Notes: a model not told the origin generated them from the sequence alone. Shown: positions 13,580 to 36,211, numbered from the stretch's first letter. The stretch: 64,000 bases of DNA from a virus (IMGVR_UViG_3300031088_000737:64001-128000); one strand, 5' to 3'. Numbers and translations: made by a program.

Positions 13580-13605
13580 AAAAAAACCGTAAGTGAATAC
13601 GGTTT
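13580..13605 (-). terminator. Bidirectional intrinsic terminator closing the tRNA array
   Basis: AAACCGTA-AGTGAA-TACGGTTT flanked by A and T runs. Confidence 0.75.
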
Positions 13606-13613
13606 ATTTTATT

Positions 13614-13697
13614 TGGTGCGGAAAGTGGGACTCGAACCCACACGCCTCTCGGCACTGGCTTCTAAGACCAGCGTGTCTACCATTCCACCATTTCCGC
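13614..13697 (-). tRNA. tRNA-Leu(UAG)
   Basis: Full cloverleaf; anticodon stem CTGGT/GCCAG, loop CTTAGAA; long variable arm, A73, encoded CCA. Confidence 0.95.
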
Positions 13698-13704
13698 ATA
13701 GACA

Positions 13705-14049
13705 TTAATATTTCTTTTCAATATAATTTAAATCAACATTTTCAAAGATAAAATCTATATTATTATTTTTGCAACAGGTTATCAAATCTTGATAGTCTTC
13801 AAAATCATTGGCATCATAATCAGGAATACTATCTTCATGTTCATATAAATCAATTAAACTGTAACTCAACTCAGTTTCATCAACACCAGCAATATCGGAC
13901 CATTCTTTTCGAATAGAACGTTTAAAGACATAATCAGTAAAATCTTCTTTATGTGGCTCTGCAACCAGTTCGCCATCAAGGAAGATATTCCAATAACGAT
14001 TGTCATACAAATTAACGATAACAATTTTACCTTTCACTGAGTTTGTCAT
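13705..14049 (-). CDS. Acidic hypothetical protein (114 aa) inserted in the tRNA array
   Basis: The ORF-track call begins inside a tRNA. The likely start is ATG 14049 (MTNSVKGK...) with an AAGGT RBS. Confidence 0.7.
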   Translation of the reverse strand: MTNSVKGKIVIVNLYDNRYWNIFLDGELVAEPHKEDFTDYVFKRSIRKEWSDIAGVDETELSYSLIDLYEHEDSIPDYDANDFEDYQDLITCCKNNNIDFIFENVDLNYIEKKY

Positions 14050-14084
14050 GTTTAAATACCTTTGTAAGAAATAAAACATAAAGT

Positions 14085-14168
14085 TGGTGCCCGAAGACGG
14101 ACTCGAACCGTCACTCCCGAAGGAAGGGGATTTTAAGTCCCCCGCGTCTACCATTTCGCCATTCGGGC
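14085..14168 (-). tRNA. tRNA-Leu(UAA)
   Basis: Stem GGGGA/TCCCC, loop CTTAAAA, long variable arm, CCA. Confidence 0.95.
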
Positions 14169-14177
14169 ATAAAAAAG

Positions 14178-14275
14178 TAATTCAATATTTTAGAATGCAT
14201 TTCAGCAAACGTGTCTACCACTCCACCACCCCGTGCAAACACGAGAAAAGGATTCGAACCTTCGATATTGAATTA
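14178..14275 (-). ncRNA. Circularly permuted tRNA-like RNA (T arm - closed acceptor hairpin - D arm - degenerate anticodon arm, closed by an 11-bp stem)
   Basis: Minus strand: TAATTCAATAT C GAAGG-TTCGAAT-CCTTT TCTCGTG-TTTG-CACGGGG TG GTG-GAGTGGTAGA-CAC G TTTGC-TGAAAT-GCATT CTAAA ATATTGAATTA. Confidence 0.75.
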
Positions 14276-14279
14276 AATC

Positions 14280-14364
14280 TGGTCCCCGGAGCCGGACTCG
14301 AACCGGCACGCCTTTCGGCGGGAGATTTTAAGTCTCCTGTGTCTACCAATTCCACCATCCGGGG
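14280..14364 (-). tRNA. tRNA-Leu(UAA)
   Basis: Acceptor CCCCGGA/TCCGGGG, loop CTTAAAA, long variable arm, CCA. Confidence 0.95.
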
Positions 14365-14382
14365 ATAAACACATGTACAATC

Positions 14383-14468
14383 TGGTACCCGAAGTCGGAC
14401 TCGAACCGACACGCTTTTCAGCGGGAGATTTTGAATCTCCTGTGTACTACCAATTTCACCATTCGGGC
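14383..14468 (-). tRNA. tRNA-Leu(CAA)
   Basis: Stem GGAGA/TCTCC, loop TTCAAAA, CCA. Confidence 0.93.
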
Positions 14469-14479
14469 ATATCTAAATC

Positions 14480-14564
14480 TGGTACGGAAGATGGGACTCG
14501 AACCCACACGCCTCGCGGCACTGGTTTCTGAAACCAGCATGTGCTACCATTTCATCACTTCCGC
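14480..14564 (-). tRNA. tRNA-Leu(CAG)
   Basis: Stem CTGGT/ACCAG, loop TTCAGAA, CCA. Confidence 0.93.
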
Positions 14565-14578
14565 ATTAACTCATAATT

Positions 14579-14664
14579 TGGTACCCGAAGTCGGACTCGA
14601 ACCGACACGCCTTTCAGCGGGAGATTTTAAGTCTCCTGTGTACTACCAATTTCACCATTCTGGC
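14579..14664 (-). tRNA. tRNA-Leu(UAA), one A-G mismatch in the acceptor stem
   Basis: Loop CTTAAAA; near-copy of 14383..14468; acceptor GCCAGAA/TTCGGGT. Confidence 0.88.
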
Positions 14665-14675
14665 ATATCTAAATT

Positions 14676-14759
14676 TGGTGCGTTAGGTGAGACTCGAACT
14701 CACAATCCTTTCGGCACTGGCTTCTTAGACCAGCGTGTATACCATTCCACCACTAACGC
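14676..14759 (-). tRNA. tRNA-Leu(AAG), A34
   Basis: Stem CTGGT/GCCAG, loop CTAAGAA, long variable arm, CCA. Confidence 0.93.
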
Positions 14760-14765
14760 ATGATT

Positions 14766-14915
14766 TGTCGCTTAAAGTAGGAGTCGAACCTACAAGTCAT
14801 GGACTCAATGTCCATCGCGTCTACCGTTCCGCCATATTAGTAAGATACTAATAACAGGATTCGAACCTGTAATGACAGGGCTATCACCCTATGTCTACCA
14901 TTCCATCATTTAAGC
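14766..14915 (-). ncRNA. Double tRNA-like RNA with swapped acceptor stems and no anticodon loops
   Basis: Minus strand: GCTTAAA TG ATG-GAATGGTAGA-CAT A GGGT-GATA-GCCC TGTCATT ACAGG-TTCGAAT-CCTGT TATTAGTA-TCT-TACTAATA TG GCG-GAACGGTAGA-CGC G ATGGAC-ATTGA-GTCCAT GACTT GTAGG-TTCGACT-CCTAC TTTAAGC G ACA. Confidence 0.8.
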
Positions 14916-14919
14916 AATC

Positions 14920-15003
14920 TGGTGCGGAAGGTGGGACTCGAACCCACACGTCTCTCGACACTGGCTTCTAAGGCCAGCACGTCTACCATTTCATCACTTC
15001 CGC
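14920..15003 (-). tRNA. tRNA-Leu(UAG)
   Basis: Stem CTGGC/GCCAG, loop CTTAGAA, CCA. Confidence 0.95.
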
Positions 15004-15025
15004 GTGATATTTCTTTACATCAATT

Positions 15026-15109
15026 TGGTGCCCCGAGGGAGACTCGAACTCCCACTCCTTTCGGAAACGGATTTTGAATCCGCCGCGTCTACCATTCCGC
15101 CATCGGGGC
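15026..15109 (-). tRNA. tRNA-Leu(CAA)
   Basis: Stem GCGGA/TCCGT, loop TTCAAAA, CCA. Confidence 0.95.
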
Positions 15110-15141
15110 TTATGTTGTAGCTACATATCTTACTATAAATC

Positions 15142-15225
15142 TGGTGCGATTGGAGAGACTTGAACTCTCAATCCTTGCGGCATTGGCTTCTTAGACCAAC
15201 GTGTATACCATTCCACCACAATCGC
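15142..15225 (-). tRNA. tRNA-Leu(AAG), A34
   Basis: Stem TTGGT/GCCAA, loop CTAAGAA, CCA. Confidence 0.93.
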
Positions 15226-15232
15226 ATATCTT

Positions 15233-15316
15233 AATGAGTAAAGGGACTCGAACCCTTACGCCTTTATGGGGCATGTCTAAGCGAAGACATTATGGCTACC
15301 ATTACATCATACTCAT
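15233..15316 (-). ncRNA. tRNA-like RNA or pseudo-tRNA with Leu-type body, non-canonical anticodon loop and no CCA
   Basis: Acceptor ATGAGTA/TACTCAT; T arm AAGGG-TTCGAGT-CCCTT; anticodon arm ATGTCT-TCGCTT-AGACAT (6-nt loop); variable arm GCC...GGC. Confidence 0.7.
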
Positions 15317-15415
15317 CAGGGGTTTGACTTTGATAATAGTGAGTTACAAGCTAATAATTACTATGTTTCAAAGTTTCCAGTGGGAACCGGAGCAACCCAA
15401 TTTTAAATCTTTATT

Positions 15416-15500
15416 TGGTGCGGAAGGTGAGACTTGAACTCACAATCATTATAGAAACTGTGTTTGAGACAGTCGCGTTTACCAGTTTCGCCACATCCGC
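15416..15500 (-). tRNA. tRNA-Leu(CAA)
   Basis: Stem ACTGT/ACAGT, loop CTCAAAC; one T-T mismatch in the acceptor; weakly paired variable arm; CCA. Confidence 0.85.
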
Positions 15501-15552
15501 ATATTTATTTCTTTAAGAGTGTTTGTTTGTTTCCTCACTCTTCATGTTTACT

Positions 15553-15581
15553 ATCTTACCAACTCTTTTCTTCTTTGTCAA
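15553..15581 (-). promoter_or_regulatory. sigma70 promoter of the tRNA-Leu array
   Basis: TTGACA-17 nt-TAAGAT. An IHF-consensus match (AATCAATGATTTA, 15619-15631) lies just upstream but may be chance in AT-rich DNA. Confidence 0.8.
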
Positions 15582-15671
15582 CAACTATTTTAAATTATTT
15601 TAAAATATTTTCCTTTTAAATCAATGATTTACGTTGTTTATAGTTGTAGTTAACCCTAGACATTCGCCCAT

Positions 15672-15776
15672 AAAAAAAGACCCTTTTGGGGTCCAGATGC
15701 GAAATGAGGCGAGTTTTTATATTCGAGGTCATCTGCATCTGGACAATCTAATTGTCCAAAATGCAGACAAATAGAT
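15672..15776 (-). promoter_or_regulatory. Transcription attenuator (alternative hairpins, antiterminator and terminator) downstream of the Leu leader
   Basis: Terminator GACCC-CAAAA-GGGTC-T7 (15672-15693). Antiterminator GTCCAGATGC (15735-15744) pairs perfectly with GCATCTGGAC (15691-15700). Protector hairpin 15732-15767 and competing hairpin 15746-15776. Confidence 0.85.
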
Positions 15777-15777
15777 G

Positions 15778-15840
15778 CTAGCCCAAGCTAAGTAATAGTG
15801 AGCTTAAGAGTAGCAGTGATAATCGAATAGTTGTGAACAT
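15778..15840 (-). CDS. Leucine-rich attenuator leader peptide MFTTIRLSLLLLSSLLLSLG
   Basis: GAGGA RBS, 20 codons, 9 Leu (TTA CTG CTA CTC TTA CTA TTA CTT TTG); LeuL-like architecture. Confidence 0.85.
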   Translation of the reverse strand: MFTTIRLSLLLLSSLLLSLG

Positions 15841-15864: not shown

Positions 15865-15893
15865 ATTTTATCAAAGGTTCGTTTCAAAGTCAA
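15865..15893 (-). promoter_or_regulatory. sigma70 promoter of the Leu leader
   Basis: TTGACT-17 nt-TAAAAT, back to back with a divergent TTGACT at 15909 (10-bp inverted repeat TCAAAGTCAA/TTGACTTTGA). Confidence 0.8.
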
Positions 15894-15967: not shown

Positions 15968-16681
15968 ATGACCAAAGAGACAGATATACTTAAGCTCTAC
16001 GAAAAAATTCTAAAACACTCACCTTATTCAAAAGCTAATGATGTTGTTCGTATAGAAGCCAATACTTATCCATCTCAATCAGTGGAGCAATACCTTATCA
16101 AATCAACCAGTAGTGATGAAACTCTGTTAAATGCCATCATGATACCCACTGGCATACACACTAGTCAGTATTTGTTAAATTTAAATTTTGAAGGCGTTAC
16201 TAATGTTAACAATATTAATAAATGGTTAGGTAAAATTCATTTTAATCATGTGGTTGATATTATTAATAGCTATGCTCTGACTGGATTATCTGTTGGACTT
16301 ATTAAGGATATCAGTTATCCAGCAAAAATATCGTTGTCGTGGTTTTATCAACACCAAGAGGTTTATCAATCCTTTGGAGCCTACTATCATTCTATTTATC
16401 CTGATTATAACAAACGTGTCGCTAAGGTTTCTTTTATTGATTTGACCACTGGTTTGGAAACACGTCCTTTAAAATTGACGGCTAATCTAGAACTCTTAAT
16501 TGTCGATGAAGTCTTAACACCGACCGTTGTGTTATCTGTTCCTTTTGTTAAGACCAAGAATAGAAAAGAATTGCGTATCAATCTCAATGAACCTTTGGAT
16601 CTTGCTGTTTACATATCATTGTTTAAAAATGAATTTCAGTCCTTGCTTGATGCCAAAGTAAAGAAAACAAAAAAGAAATAA
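15968..16681 (+). CDS. Hypothetical protein
   Basis: 237-aa ORF, GGAG RBS, basic tail KVKKTKKK. Confidence 0.75.
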   Translation: MTKETDILKLYEKILKHSPYSKANDVVRIEANTYPSQSVEQYLIKSTSSDETLLNAIMIPTGIHTSQYLLNLNFEGVTNVNNINKWLGKIHFNHVVDIINSYALTGLSVGLIKDISYPAKISLSWFYQHQEVYQSFGAYYHSIYPDYNKRVAKVSFIDLTTGLETRPLKLTANLELLIVDEVLTPTVVLSVPFVKTKNRKELRINLNEPLDLAVYISLFKNEFQSLLDAKVKKTKKK

Positions 16682-31907: not shown

Positions 31908-34259
31908 ATGAGAACAGTTTACTTTTTATCAGCGATGCCGGGAACTGGTAAATCAACTTTTATTAGAGAACATGGTTTAGATGCTCATAGCTTGTCTTTG
32001 GATGCTATTCGTCATATTTATGCAGGAGCTGCCACAGATATGGATGGTCGCCTTATATTATCTAACAATCGAGAGGATTTAGTTTTTGGTAAATTTATGG
32101 AAGCCTTTGAACTGAGACTTCAAATGGGTGGTGTTCTCTTTATTGATAACCTTAATCAAGACCAAAAAGCAATTGACTCTTACATGGATCTTTTGAAAAA
32201 ATTTGATTATGATTACCGTGTGGTTCAATTCCCATTGCAGCCTATTGAGTTTTATTATGCTCGTAACGATCAACGTGAACCTTATAAAAGATTGCCAAAA
32301 GATGCGATTGATAGAAATTATGTGTTATTTCAGAATGCGTCATTTGATGATATGACAAAAATTATTACACCTGATGATGCGATTAAATTTGTTAAAGCTT
32401 CACCAGAAGACTTAATGATTGATTTAAGTGGATATAATAAGATTCATTACATTGGTGATCTTCAAGGTTCCTTTTATCCATTAAAAAAGTATTTTGAACA
32501 AGAAGGTGGTTTCAAAAAGAATGAATTCTATATCTTTGTAGGTGATTATATTGATCGTGGAATTGAAAATGATAAGTGTCTACACTTTTTAAGAAAGTAT
32601 ATGGGTTATGATAACATTGTATTTCTTATGGGTAACCATGAGAAGCATTTGTATAACTACAGTAATGATATCTATACACCACCTGATGAATTCATGAAGA
32701 AGACCTTGCCACAGCTTGAAAAAGCAGGTTTTACAAAAGAAGACATGAAAGAATTGTATCGTAAAATGCAATTGTTTAGCTTTATTCAATACAATGGACA
32801 AAAAATCATGACCACACATGCTGGTTTGACGGCTATCCCTGAGTTTCCACGTCTCTTGTCTGATGATGAATACATGCGTGGTTATGGTCCATACAGCTAT
32901 GATGTTGATGGTAAGTTTAATGAACAAAACAAAGACAATGAATGGTATCAAGTTCATGGTCATAGAAACCAACATAAACTAGATTTCAACAGTTATCCTA
33001 AAAGTTTTGCATTAGAAGCTGATGTTGAATATGGTGGTAGTTTGCCTGTATTGAGAGTCAGCCGTGAAGGTTTCAATGGTGTCTACATTACCAATAAAGT
33101 GTTTAATAAAGAAGAAGTCCTTAAAATGGAAAAAGCATCTGGCATGTTTGGTGTTGGTGAACCAGAAGGTGCTCTTGCTCATTTCTTAAACCGTAAAGTA
33201 GATGGTCACAAAAGTGGTGTTGAATTACTTCAAGAGTTGAGAAACAATAAGTTGTTGGTAGAAACTGTTTCTATTTCAAAGCCACATTTATCTACATTTA
33301 ATTTTAGCCATGATGTTGCTGACGCTAATATCCAAAAATCATCTGTTAAAATTCGTGGGCTTGTAGTGAATAACAAGACAGGTGATATCGTCACTCGTGG
33401 GTTTGATAAGTTTTATGCATTGAATGAAAAAGATGTTGCTGCTAATACATTAGAAGCTATTAAGGCAAAAGAAACGGGGGCTTTAAATGTATTTGAACAG
33501 GAAGATGGTCGTTTAGCCATGATTGGATATGACGTTGAAAATACTTCATTAGTGTTTACATCTAAACACGGAATTGATACTGCAGAAGCGGAGTCCTTTA
33601 AACAATTGATTTTGAGTAATCTTAAATCAAGTGAGCTTGAATTTATGAAAGTGTTTGCAAACAAACACAATGTTAACTATATTTTTGAAGTCATTGATCC
33701 AAAGAATGATTCAAACATCATTAAACCAGAGAATAGTTCTATTGTATTATTAGCAGTCGTAAAACGTGATGTTGTGCTATCACAATTAACATACGAAAAC
33801 TTAGAAGCCTTTGCTGGTCATTTTGAATCGCTTGAAGCTAAGAAAAAATTTGTAAGCTTTAACAACTTTGAAGGTTTTGAAAAATTCTGTAATGCCCTCA
33901 GTAATGAATCAGCATTCAAAACAAAAAGGCAAATGGAAGGATTTGTAGTAGAAGGAGCTGGTATGTTTATGGTTAAATTGCCTTACTATCAATTCTGGAA
34001 GTCAATGAGTGATTGCGTAAACCAAATCAATGTGGATGCTGTTAAAGGTGTTAAAACTGATCTCCCTGCTTTAGTAGAAGCATTAAATATCAAGTCAGAT
34101 GACAAGCCTAATGCGATTGAATTTTTGGAAAGTGTTAGAAGAATGTCGAAAGAAGAACGTGAATTAGATCTTGTGTCATTGAGAGAAAAGTTTTTGAGTT
34201 CAAGACCTGATCTTTCAGTTGTAGTAAAACCAAGAAAAAATAGGAACTCACCAAGTTAA
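31908..34259 (+). CDS. Pnkp-like RNA end-healing protein: P-loop polynucleotide kinase + metallophosphoesterase + Rnl-like ligase domain (degenerate)
   Basis: MPGTGKST Walker A; IGDLQG, GDYIDRG, GNHE, HAG, HGH; ligase-like RGFDKF, EQEDG, FEVID, EGFVV. Confidence 0.88.
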   Translation: MRTVYFLSAMPGTGKSTFIREHGLDAHSLSLDAIRHIYAGAATDMDGRLILSNNREDLVFGKFMEAFELRLQMGGVLFIDNLNQDQKAIDSYMDLLKKFDYDYRVVQFPLQPIEFYYARNDQREPYKRLPKDAIDRNYVLFQNASFDDMTKIITPDDAIKFVKASPEDLMIDLSGYNKIHYIGDLQGSFYPLKKYFEQEGGFKKNEFYIFVGDYIDRGIENDKCLHFLRKYMGYDNIVFLMGNHEKHLYNYSNDIYTPPDEFMKKTLPQLEKAGFTKEDMKELYRKMQLFSFIQYNGQKIMTTHAGLTAIPEFPRLLSDDEYMRGYGPYSYDVDGKFNEQNKDNEWYQVHGHRNQHKLDFNSYPKSFALEADVEYGGSLPVLRVSREGFNGVYITNKVFNKEEVLKMEKASGMFGVGEPEGALAHFLNRKVDGHKSGVELLQELRNNKLLVETVSISKPHLSTFNFSHDVADANIQKSSVKIRGLVVNNKTGDIVTRGFDKFYALNEKDVAANTLEAIKAKETGALNVFEQEDGRLAMIGYDVENTSLVFTSKHGIDTAEAESFKQLILSNLKSSELEFMKVFANKHNVNYIFEVIDPKNDSNIIKPENSSIVLLAVVKRDVVLSQLTYENLEAFAGHFESLEAKKKFVSFNNFEGFEKFCNALSNESAFKTKRQMEGFVVEGAGMFMVKLPYYQFWKSMSDCVNQINVDAVKGVKTDLPALVEALNIKSDDKPNAIEFLESVRRMSKEERELDLVSLREKFLSSRPDLSVVVKPRKNRNSPS

Positions 34260-35566: not shown

Positions 35567-36211
35567 TTATTTACATTTTTCACAACCGCATTTTGATTCT
35601 CTGAGTTCTTTCCTTAAATCTTCTATTTCTTTGAGTAGGATATTATAAACATATTCACTTTCAACAGTAAGGCTGGGTGCATAATATCCATGTATTCTTT
35701 CTATTTCATAGGTGTCAGCCGCTAGTTTGATGACTTGCACTTTTGAACGGAGATCAGTTAACAATTCTAATCCATCTGTTAATCTGTAGTCGTTCACATA
35801 AAATACTCGTTTAATGCCACTTTGTATAATTCTTTTTGAACATTCTATACATGGAATATGCGTTACAAATAAAGAAGCGTTTTTAACACTCAGTGTGCTT
35901 TGTTCTGCTTTTGACATACAGTTAGCTTCACCATGTAATGTAATCGGGTTTGTTACATCTTGTCCCGGTAACTCACATATGTTATCAAAACCAGAAGGTG
36001 TTCCATTGTATCCCATTAACATTTCATTATTAGGCGTTACAATTAAAGCCCCAACTTTTAGTCGAGCACAATAAGATAAACGACTGGCTTGAAAAGCCAT
36101 CGCCATATAGGTTTGAATGAACTTCAAATCGTGATGCTTACCTAATTTTTCTATTTCTGTTTCTATTTCATTATTATCCAACAACTGGTTAAAATCGCCA
36201 TATCTTGACAT
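35567..36211 (-). CDS. dCMP deaminase (ComEB/Dcd family)
   Basis: S.C.R.KVGA, GYNGTPSG...C, HGEANC and PCIECSK zinc motifs. Confidence 0.9.
   Translation of the reverse strand: MSRYGDFNQLLDNNEIETEIEKLGKHHDLKFIQTYMAMAFQASRLSYCARLKVGALIVTPNNEMLMGYNGTPSGFDNICELPGQDVTNPITLHGEANCMSKAEQSTLSVKNASLFVTHIPCIECSKRIIQSGIKRVFYVNDYRLTDGLELLTDLRSKVQVIKLAADTYEIERIHGYYAPSLTVESEYVYNILLKEIEDLRKELRESKCGCEKCK

Follow-up and report, generated by a model that had tools for sequence, protein, structure and literature searches.

A leucine-only tRNA array behind a predicted leader-peptide attenuator on a probable giant AT-rich mobile replicon

Why should a mobile element carry eleven genes for the tRNAs of one amino acid, side by side and with five different anticodons? 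The question is raised by a stretch of 64,000 nucleotides (hereafter the window) of the IMG/VR record IMGVR_UViG_3300031088_000737 (positions 64001-128000 of a contig of 181,270 bp with 31% G+C). On the minus strand between 13614 and 15500, ARAGORN made 13 tRNA-type calls, 11 of which were tRNA-Leu, both in the window and in the whole contig (positions given here are those of the window unless the contig or another record is named). We consider it somewhat probable that a giant AT-rich mobile element of bacteria carries this array as a self-contained operon for leucine decoding, and that the operon's supply of tRNA is tuned by an attenuator.

The Leu anticodons were UAG (two genes), UAA (three), CAA (three), CAG (one) and AAG (two), and no Leu(GAG) gene was found by ARAGORN in the whole contig. 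An earlier note on this DNA, made from the sequence alone, had given exactly these counts and end coordinates. Rfam also supported them: of the 12 tRNA matches in the window that reached the gathering threshold of 29 bits, 11 were the Leu genes (48.2-62.9 bits) and the twelfth was a weaker match of 38.3 bits at 14769-14841. From the first gene of the operon to the last, the Leu genes are as follows.

15416-15500, minus strand: tRNA-Leu(CAA) 'caa1' (ARAGORN; Rfam 57.6 bits), the outlier, 49-69% identical to all the others, with a T.T acceptor pair and the loop CUCAAAC
15142-15225, minus strand: tRNA-Leu(AAG) 'aag1' (ARAGORN; Rfam 58.2 bits), 88% identical to aag2
15026-15109, minus strand: tRNA-Leu(CAA) 'caa2' (ARAGORN; Rfam 59.4 bits)
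14920-15003, minus strand: tRNA-Leu(UAG) 'tag1' (ARAGORN; Rfam 58.2 bits), 89% identical to tag2 and 87% to cag
14676-14759, minus strand: tRNA-Leu(AAG) 'aag2' (ARAGORN; Rfam 57.5 bits)
14579-14664, minus strand: tRNA-Leu(UAA) 'taa1' (ARAGORN; Rfam 48.2 bits), with an A.G acceptor pair, 95% identical to caa3
14480-14564, minus strand: tRNA-Leu(CAG) 'cag' (ARAGORN; Rfam 52.3 bits)
14383-14468, minus strand: tRNA-Leu(CAA) 'caa3' (ARAGORN; Rfam 51.4 bits)
14280-14364, minus strand: tRNA-Leu(UAA) 'taa2' (ARAGORN; Rfam 55.3 bits)
14085-14168, minus strand: tRNA-Leu(UAA) 'taa3' (ARAGORN; Rfam 60.4 bits)
13614-13697, minus strand: tRNA-Leu(UAG) 'tag2', the last gene of the operon (ARAGORN; Rfam 62.9 bits)

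Each of the 11 genes folds into a canonical type II cloverleaf with a 3-bp D stem and a long variable arm, and each keeps the conserved tRNA core (U8, A14, G18G19 and the T-loop). A73 and an encoded CCA are invariant among them, A73 being an identity element for LeuRS in E. coli. Apart from the single non-standard acceptor pairs of caa1 and taa1, the 7-bp acceptor stems (nine genes) are flawless. In the alignment of the 11 genes, 98.0% of 253 stem cells were standard pairs and both-side, compensatory changes were seen in 18 of the 23 stem pairs; none of 500 shuffles matched the observed values, and only 32-47% of cells remained paired when the partners were slid. Pairwise identity among the copies was 49-95%. 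Because copies so diverged still have intact pairing, they are old and under selection, neither fresh duplicates nor decaying pseudogenes, and all eleven are predicted to be working tRNAs. The claim of the earlier note that every canonical tRNA of the array is of the Leu type holds for the canonical genes, and only in that sense, the remaining units of the array being non-canonical.

Pairwise identity also bears on how such genes could come to stand together. Besides the outlier caa1, the genes fall into two sequence families, with several different anticodons in each. Family A (the tag, cag and aag genes; 69-89% identity overall) has a core of tag1, tag2 and cag at 86-89%, and its two AAG genes, apart from their mutual identity, are 69-85% identical to the rest of the family. 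Family B is centered on taa1 and caa3, whereas taa2, taa3 and caa2 are 86-88%, 76-78% and 66-76% identical, respectively, to its other members. Part of the array is a recognizable duplication.

14379-14738, minus strand: tandem duplication of a 196-bp unit of two tRNA genes (repeat search: 164 nt, 88% identity, spacing 196)

Both copies of this unit, 14575-14738 (aag2 and taa1) and 14379-14542 (cag and caa3), consist of one A-type and one B-type tRNA, and the anticodon differs between the copies in both members (AAG/CAG and UAA/CAA). Starting from three or more ancestral tRNA-Leu genes, the operon probably reached its eleven genes in this way, as genes were duplicated in tandem locally and then switched anticodon. 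LeuRS ignores the anticodon and would therefore tolerate such switching, and duplication with switching within one isotype explains the all-Leu content. The run of Leu genes exceeds chance, though duplication accounts for its composition. Evident tandem duplication, together with broken tRNA-like pieces between the genes, could also suggest neutral amplification, in which the copies would have come from recent slippage or be pseudogenes in decay, none with a function of its own. We regard this as next to negligible, considering that the copies diverge by 5-51%, that 98% of stem pairs are kept with the compensatory changes described above, and that no copy has lost A73 or CCA.

If the genes are genuine, how would they be expressed? 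The region upstream of caa1 and the end of the operon contain the following elements.

15865-15893, minus strand: promoter P1, TTGACT-17-TAAAAT with TG before the -10 element (consensus scan, 10/12 matches)
15778-15840, minus strand: leader open reading frame (ORF) MFTTIRLSLLLLSSLLLSLG, 20 codons, with GAGGA 8 nt before the ATG
15691-15776, minus strand: alternative RNA structures (ViennaRNA masked folds)
15671-15694, minus strand: intrinsic terminator GGACCC-CAAAA-GGGTCT (15678-15694) plus T7 (terminator scan and folds), its 5' arm overlapping the antiterminator by 4 nt
15553-15581, minus strand: predicted promoter P2, TTGACA-17-TAAGAT with extended -10 element (TG), near-consensus (promoter scan)
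13584-13605, minus strand: operon terminator, 8-bp stem, 6-nt loop and T run (terminator scan)

P1 lies 25 nt upstream of the leader ATG, and the next gene upstream (15968-16681) is divergent. Nine of the 19 sense codons of the leader are Leu codons, and all six kinds are present (TTA three times, CTA twice, and CTG, CTC, CTT and TTG once each). At the Leu content of the element, the binomial probability of at least nine in 19 is 1.6e-5. It was also observed that the numbers of leader codons and genes are equal for four of the five anticodons (TTA 3/UAA 3, CTA 2/UAG 2, CTG 1/CAG 1, CTT+CTC 2/AAG 2), the exception being TTG 1/CAA 3; this mirroring may be chance.

The leader RNA as a whole folds at -59.6 kcal/mol (z = -5.2), and none of 200 shuffles was equally stable. 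With its 5' part free, hairpin A (~15746-15776) and the antiterminator (~15691-15744) form, whereas masking of the 5' part by a ribosome at the stop codon leads to hairpin B (~15729-15770). In masked folds with the A site at Leu codons 7-17, a small hairpin was accompanied by a long antiterminator that sequesters the 5' arm of the terminator; with the A site at codon 19 or the stop codon, the other hairpin captured the antiterminator strand and the terminator formed. The modeled folds switch in the classical direction, in which slow Leu decoding is predicted to give read-through. An ORF with a ribosome-binding site and enriched in the relevant codons is present, as is a terminator with an antiterminator that excludes it in silico, both as expected of a leader attenuator; the terminator is, however, not the sole gate between promoter and genes, as P2 intervenes.

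P2 is located between the leader terminator and the first tRNA gene, in a cassette of ~150 nt (~15501-15650) made up of an A/T-rich upstream part, the promoter and a 5' leader that ends with AATAAATAT directly before the first tRNA. A largely identical cassette precedes the second tRNA array of the contig (L006:10950-11103), with 2 mismatches in a 35-nt core, and no further copy was found in the contig beyond the two arrays. This layout resembles that of rRNA operons, which likewise have tandem P1/P2 promoters.

The second array (contig positions 156104-158247) holds the only other tRNA genes of the contig, which has 25 ARAGORN calls in its 181 kb: Ala(UGC) five times, Ala(GGC), Arg(UCU) twice, Arg(CCU), two genes with CAU, and one odd unit. 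The earlier note had proposed checking whether other arrays are also devoted to a single amino acid and have matching leaders. This one is mixed (Ala/Arg/CAU), but a matching leader is present: it has its own promoter, 13 codons (MNIQLTIRARAIS) including ATA twice, AGA twice, GCC and GCG, and a strong terminator, and 7 of its 12 residues match Ala, Arg(AGR) or CAU (P = 0.002 if CAU is Met or Ile).

We extended the search for leaders to ATG-initiated ORFs of 8-45 codons within 450 nt upstream of nine tRNA clusters in three Pseudomonas megaplasmids, which gave 32 ORFs. Candidate leaders were found for three arrays of pMPPla107 (NZ_CP031226.1; leader regions L104:3195-3390, L105:1636-2010 and L103:~990-1175).

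pMPPla107 Glu/Asp/Arg array: two tandem leaders, in which 12/23 and 10/20 residues are D, E or R
pMPPla107 Ser/Thr/Pro/Leu/Gly/Met/Arg array: leader MNTLSLSSSMPTPSLMAS, in which 15/17 residues match
pMPPla107 23-gene array: one leader, in which 20/25 residues match (weak, P = 0.009)

A hairpin-plus-T7 terminator follows each of the leaders before the Glu/Asp/Arg and Ser/Thr/Pro/Leu arrays, and these leader regions are unusually stable (z = -4.7, -2.5 and -4.4); the terminators of L105 were missed by a simple terminator scan and are visible in the folds. The Asp/Glu/Arg leader of FeN3W was marginal (P = 0.05). In addition, the motif T7-ATGCC follows the terminator both in the second array (L006:10918-10931) and in the pMPPla107 leaders (L104, L105), and the Leu leader has T7-ATGGG (15665-15678). 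The shared T7-ATGCC may point to attenuator modules of common descent, although base composition differs (31% versus 53% G+C). A full-text literature search found no report of leader-peptide control of tRNA genes, and the words 'attenuat' and 'leader' do not occur in the pMPPla107 paper (PMC6482414).

The earlier note had offered two explanations, amino-acid-specific control or protection of Leu decoding against anticodon nucleases. Since matched leaders were found here as well as in pMPPla107, the first is supported, by leaders, terminators and folds alike; the second, considered below, has no direct support.

What demand would such an operon serve? Leucine makes up 9.04% of the residues encoded by the element, level with lysine (9.05%) as the commonest amino acid. 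Its codons are used in the proportions TTA 0.40, TTG 0.22, CTT 0.18, CTA 0.08, CTC 0.06 and CTG 0.05, so that TTA and TTG account for 63%. Grouped by codon class, codon usage and gene number compare as follows.

UUR: codon share 0.63, gene share 0.55
CUY: codon share 0.24, gene share 0.18
CUR: codon share 0.13, gene share 0.27

Gene shares roughly track codon shares, and the tRNAs of both arrays (UUR, AGR, GCA and perhaps AUA) would be those most needed by an AT-rich gene set. No LeuRS gene was found in the 181-kb contig, and therefore an enzyme of the host or one encoded off the contig would charge these tRNAs.

On the basis of these results, we propose the following mechanism. The eleven copies would together decode all six Leu codons, about in proportion to their usage by the element, and the benefit would be a supply of Leu-tRNA for its AT-rich gene set. 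Transcription would have two inputs, P2 directly before the first tRNA and P1 by way of a ribosome-mediated attenuator. Whenever any Leu codon is decoded slowly, a ribosome would stall in the leader, the antiterminator would be left free and transcripts from P1 would enter the tRNA genes. When decoding is fast, the ribosome would reach the stop codon, the alternative hairpin would form and the terminator would end transcription. It is the restriction of the operon to a single amino acid that would give such codon-specific feedback its meaning.

Several points weigh against this proposal. P2, if strong and constitutive, would leave the attenuator able to add expression and not to gate it; lying downstream of the terminator, P2 should restrict the attenuator to adding to a basal level, if it is active in vivo. 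The fold model assumed one setting of the ribosome footprint (15 nt past the first A-site base). The CUR-reading genes are over-represented (0.27 versus 0.13), so copy number is no simple mirror of usage; moreover, the codon shares are those of the element itself. Extra tRNA would be no help when leucine itself is scarce. Finally, the pMPPla107 leaders were chosen among 32 ORFs and their P values need correction, of which the best survive a factor of 32, and a Leu-rich leader was absent from all five regions examined upstream of Leu tRNA genes in Pseudomonas megaplasmids.

Some of these points would fit plain constitutive supplementation, in which the array is a dosage or codon-bias supplement expressed from P2 and the leader and hairpins are a relic or inert. 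P2 is near-consensus with an extended -10 element, lies after the terminator and is conserved before both arrays, and gene shares roughly follow codon shares; for pMPPla107, its authors propose tRNA depletion or codon bias to account for megaplasmid tRNAs (PMC6482414). We nevertheless consider this explanation quite unlikely. The composition of the leader is far from chance (P = 1.6e-5), its region is unusually structured (z = -5.2), and matching leaders with terminators precede both arrays of this contig and three of pMPPla107. A relic would be expected to lose its match to the content of each array.

The alternative of counter-defence is that redundant and diverse Leu tRNAs keep Leu decoding going under attack by tRNA-Leu nucleases, the attenuator replacing what has been destroyed; a leader that senses slow decoding would indeed respond to loss of tRNA as well. 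The contig encodes RtcB (L001:8791-10227, 325 bits) and, at 31908-34259 of the window, a fusion of a P-loop kinase, a calcineurin-type phosphoesterase and a T4 Rnl1-type RNA ligase, whose best plasmid matches (~30%) are on Bacillus and Priestia plasmids. Together they are a full set for RNA end-healing and sealing on a contig with tRNA arrays, and enzymes of these types repair cleaved tRNA. In addition, A37 is present in all 11 Leu genes (alignment column 39), including the five that read CUN, whereas E. coli leuV and the Leu(GAG), Leu(CAG) and Leu(UAG) genes of pMPPla107 have G37, the m1G37 site of TrmD. The A37 type was also seen in IMG/VR tRNA-Leu genes with AAG (L010-L012) and UAG (L093-L095 and L097). 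Published phage tRNAs escape anticodon nucleases by way of an altered loop (van den Berg et al., 2023, PMC10264068), and nuclease-escaping phage tRNAs are also described in PMC13056530. Azam et al. (2024) reportedly deal with such tRNAs as counter-defense, too.

On the other side, the diversity that the earlier note had invoked is missing where nucleases cut. Within the UAA (3/3), UAG (2/2) and AAG (2/2) groups all copies share one 7-nt anticodon loop, as do two of the three CAA genes, so copies with the same anticodon add no diversity at the cut sites. None of ten array-neighboring proteins matched a defense protein in PADLOC, and a defense island around the array was rejected on this ground; nor has a Leu-specific nuclease or a host been identified here. 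Furthermore, the second array and the pMPPla107 arrays share the design for many amino acids, which favors a general supply logic rather than an arms race specific to Leu. For the present array, we consider counter-defense unlikely, though less so than constitutive supplementation, and attenuator-tuned supply is preferred.

A separate observation concerns the two Leu(AAG) genes. With no Leu(GAG) gene present, reading of CUC would need inosine at A34, and A34 outside tRNA-Arg is rare in bacteria. The contig has no TadA: its sole CDA-fold gene (35567-36211), a candidate for a TadA of the element that could act on A34, was rejected, as it is a dCMP deaminase (PDB 4p9c, 6.8e-33; 19.8 bits with the TadA model against a cut-off of 150).

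What kind of replicon carries the operon? IMG/VR classes the record as 'provirus'; CheckV estimates its completeness at 58%, and its phage nature is doubtful. AGGAG precedes 46 of 191 ORFs against 0.9 expected, a strong Shine-Dalgarno signal indicating that bacterial ribosomes translate the element. A eukaryotic giant virus, at which AT-richness, Fpg, AsnB and aminoacyl-tRNA synthetase might hint, was rejected on the basis of this signal and of the finding that only seven of the 191 upstream regions contain AAAATTGA. Among many orphans, the contig also encodes IleRS, a Clp/Hsp100-type AAA+ ATPase, AsnB, a HipA-like kinase, a Ser/Thr kinase and Fpg. Most of 39 distinct proteins had no family in Pfam, NCBIfam, PHROGs or PADLOC, and Rfam found no rRNA or other non-tRNA RNA family in the 181 kb.

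The relatives of the Fpg encoded next to the array form a graded series of 96, 88, 70, 67 and 50% identity in a homologous-protein search. Those at 88-96% (P0003, P0123 and P0148) are encoded on contigs of 1,843,594, 1,859,102 and 1,917,244 bp that belong to three clusters and come from different sources; further Fpg proteins (P0001, P0121 and P0010) are encoded on contigs of 376-604 kb. The parent replicon may thus measure ~1.9 Mb, far above any described phage and about twice pMPPla107. The best named matches of Fpg are in pMPPla107 and pBASL58 (51-53%), and that of IleRS is in Variovorax plasmids of ~0.8 Mb (46.6%). In viral contigs, single-protein scans found no match for two flanking proteins and the RNA-repair fusion, and only 30-35% matches for IleRS. 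Contig scans with an exact 29-nt tRNA stretch and with the P2 cassette gave no match, and two degenerate tRNA patterns recovered only unrelated contigs with one shared tRNA. A metagenome scan with Fpg, which caught generic Fpg motifs, yielded at least 80 loci, with a best identity of 50% among the matches listed, and no Leu array was present in the four of these loci checked for tRNAs; a scan of genome contigs gave only 29-39% matches.

The consistent size of the Fpg-bearing contigs (1.84-1.92 Mb), bacterial promoters and Shine-Dalgarno sites, and isolated housekeeping genes (IleRS, the AAA+ ATPase, AsnB and Fpg) might suggest that nothing here is mobile, and that the record is part of a chromosome filed as viral by mistake, belonging to a small AT-rich bacterium of ~1.9 Mb whose only Leu tRNA set is this operon. 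We consider this very improbable. The 181 kb lack rRNA and any other housekeeping RNA, most of the 39 scanned proteins are without family, the housekeeping genes are solitary and without operon context, and the 25 tRNA calls cover only about five amino acids; in addition, the nearest named homologs of Fpg and IleRS are on megaplasmids of 0.8-1.0 Mb. The record probably belongs to a giant AT-rich mobile replicon similar in kind to the megaplasmids, with a small-genome bacterium as a minor rival.

The closest comparison is the pMPPla107/pBASL58 family (Smith, Leligdon and Baltrus, 2019; PMC6482414), ~1-Mb Pseudomonas megaplasmids with a GC content below that of their host, aminoacyl-tRNA synthetase genes and many orphan ORFs, to which similar Pseudomonas and Variovorax megaplasmids in PLSDB can be added. 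The Pseudomonas and Variovorax megaplasmids had 41-56 tRNA matches each, and repeated tRNA units were common; Table 1 of the pMPPla107 paper gives 54 and 44 tRNAs (PMC6482414). The present contig resembles this family in having many arrayed tRNAs (25 ARAGORN calls in 181 kb) and a synthetase, IleRS. In contrast, the pMPPla107 arrays (23, 15 and 11 genes) and the Variovorax array (38 genes) are mixed, megaplasmid Leu genes occur singly or as a UAA and CAA pair without a Leu-rich leader, and the megaplasmids have 53-55% G+C, versus 31% here. No synteny with pMPPla107 or pBASL58 was detected by tblastn of the 191 ORFs against nine plasmid loci, a small part of each plasmid, in which only the Fpg match was real; one further hit overlaid tRNA genes.

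Is an array of one amino acid unusual? The earlier note held that known phage and plasmid arrays are usually mixed. This was true of the seven records with arrays that we examined, four named megaplasmids and three IMG/VR contigs, in which never more than two Leu genes were adjacent. Long runs of one tRNA in bacterial chromosomes have nonetheless been published: Shewanella has runs of more than 12 tRNA-Glu and of 8 tRNA-Val copies (Tran et al., 2016, PMC4758250), and E. coli leuQPV consists of three tandem Leu(CAG) genes. Like those runs, the present array consists of tandem genes of one amino acid in one transcription unit, born by duplication; they, however, repeat one tRNA with one anticodon in near-identical copies, whereas here there are five anticodons that make up a complete Leu decoding set, identities of 49-95% and a Leu leader. 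In print, we found no Leu-only operon with eleven genes, five anticodons and a Leu leader in front. With 11 genes in 1,887 bp (5.8 per kb), the array exceeds the density of at least 2 per kb in the definition of a tRNA array unit by Tran et al. (2016, PMC4758250); that definition also asks for at least 20 tRNA genes, and the array falls short of it with 11 canonical genes or 13 ARAGORN calls.

Leader-peptide attenuators are familiar from leuL, trpL, hisL and pheL of enterobacterial amino-acid operons and from pheST. The region described here is like the leuL type in having a short ORF rich in codons of one amino acid, a terminator and antiterminator, and stalling that is predicted to favor read-through. 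It differs in that the regulated genes are tRNA genes rather than biosynthetic or synthetase genes, in that all six Leu codons are used without a run of one, and in the second promoter between attenuator and genes. With the tRNA sets of large phages, it shares the presence of tRNA genes of a mobile element on a contig with RNA-repair enzymes, whereas the phage arrays examined were mixed and the redundant copies here lack loop diversity.

Individual tRNAs of the array have close relatives elsewhere in IMG/VR (100% for tag2, 95% for tag1, and 87-89% for aag1 and aag2). The AAG relatives are in the three contigs with mixed arrays, and the UAG tRNA is present in five loci as a single copy each. 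Over its 84 nt, tag2 is identical to a lone tRNA-Leu in two records of 36% G+C (L094:2260-2343; L097:5630-5713), the flanks of which are unrelated to this contig. Four records with the UAG tRNA were searched in full and had only 3-4 scattered tRNAs each. Either a host tRNA might have been copied by several elements, or tRNA genes might be moving between elements. An inference of the host from these identical tRNA-Leu(UAG) records was rejected, their flanks being orphan ORFs and the records having no Fpg. A GNAT acetyltransferase gene (L097:5762-6235) was observed next to the identical tRNA-Leu(UAG), among orphan ORFs.

Besides the Leu genes, the operon contains the following units.

15232-15317, minus strand: tRNA-like unit lacking CCA, its anticodon loop 8 nt (UUCGCUUA) and its acceptor stem 8 bp long (ARAGORN only)
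14846-14915, minus strand: tRNA-like unit without CCA (sub-threshold Rfam match, 28.4 bits)
14767-14842, minus strand: non-canonical Gln(UUG)-like unit without CCA (Rfam 38.3 bits), with A33 and several acceptor positions unpaired (ARAGORN drawing)
14178-14275, minus strand: spacer with tRNA-derived pieces, a T-arm-like and then an acceptor/D-arm-like segment (sequence inspection)
13705-14049, minus strand: acidic ORF of 114 codons between taa3 and tag2 (ORF scan)

The unit at 15232-15317, for which Rfam gave no match at E <= 1, has a short stem in its variable region and might decode four bases or act as a mimic that decodes nothing. A comparable odd unit ('tt' anticodon) was observed in the second array of the contig and in the Variovorax plasmid array (L118:5388-5465). 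In the two adjoining units within 14767-14915, the acceptor halves fail to pair inside each unit. The spacer at 14178-14275, which had no ARAGORN or Rfam call, looks permuted. No match was found for the 114-codon ORF in NCBIfam, PHROGs or PADLOC, or for a longer form of 149 amino acids in Pfam.

What, then, would such an operon mean for the biology of giant replicons? The array is a clear natural case of tRNA gene families that stay within one isotype as they expand through duplication and changes of anticodon. For decades, the tRNA genes of phages and megaplasmids have been debated between codon compensation and evasion of defense; a complete and redundant Leu set behind a Leu-testing leader points to a third element, feedback on tRNA supply by decoding speed. 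More broadly, giant replicons might possess a 'tRNA-supply homeostat' of which this array is one module, sorting their tRNA genes by amino acid and placing each operon under a leader spelled in its own codons, an idea for and against which we find the balance even. If it is true, the all-Leu operon with its six-codon leader would be the purest case, and the same design in pMPPla107 makes the idea directly testable: as the host of pMPPla107 is a culturable Pseudomonas, it is open to ordinary reporter fusions and tRNA-seq.

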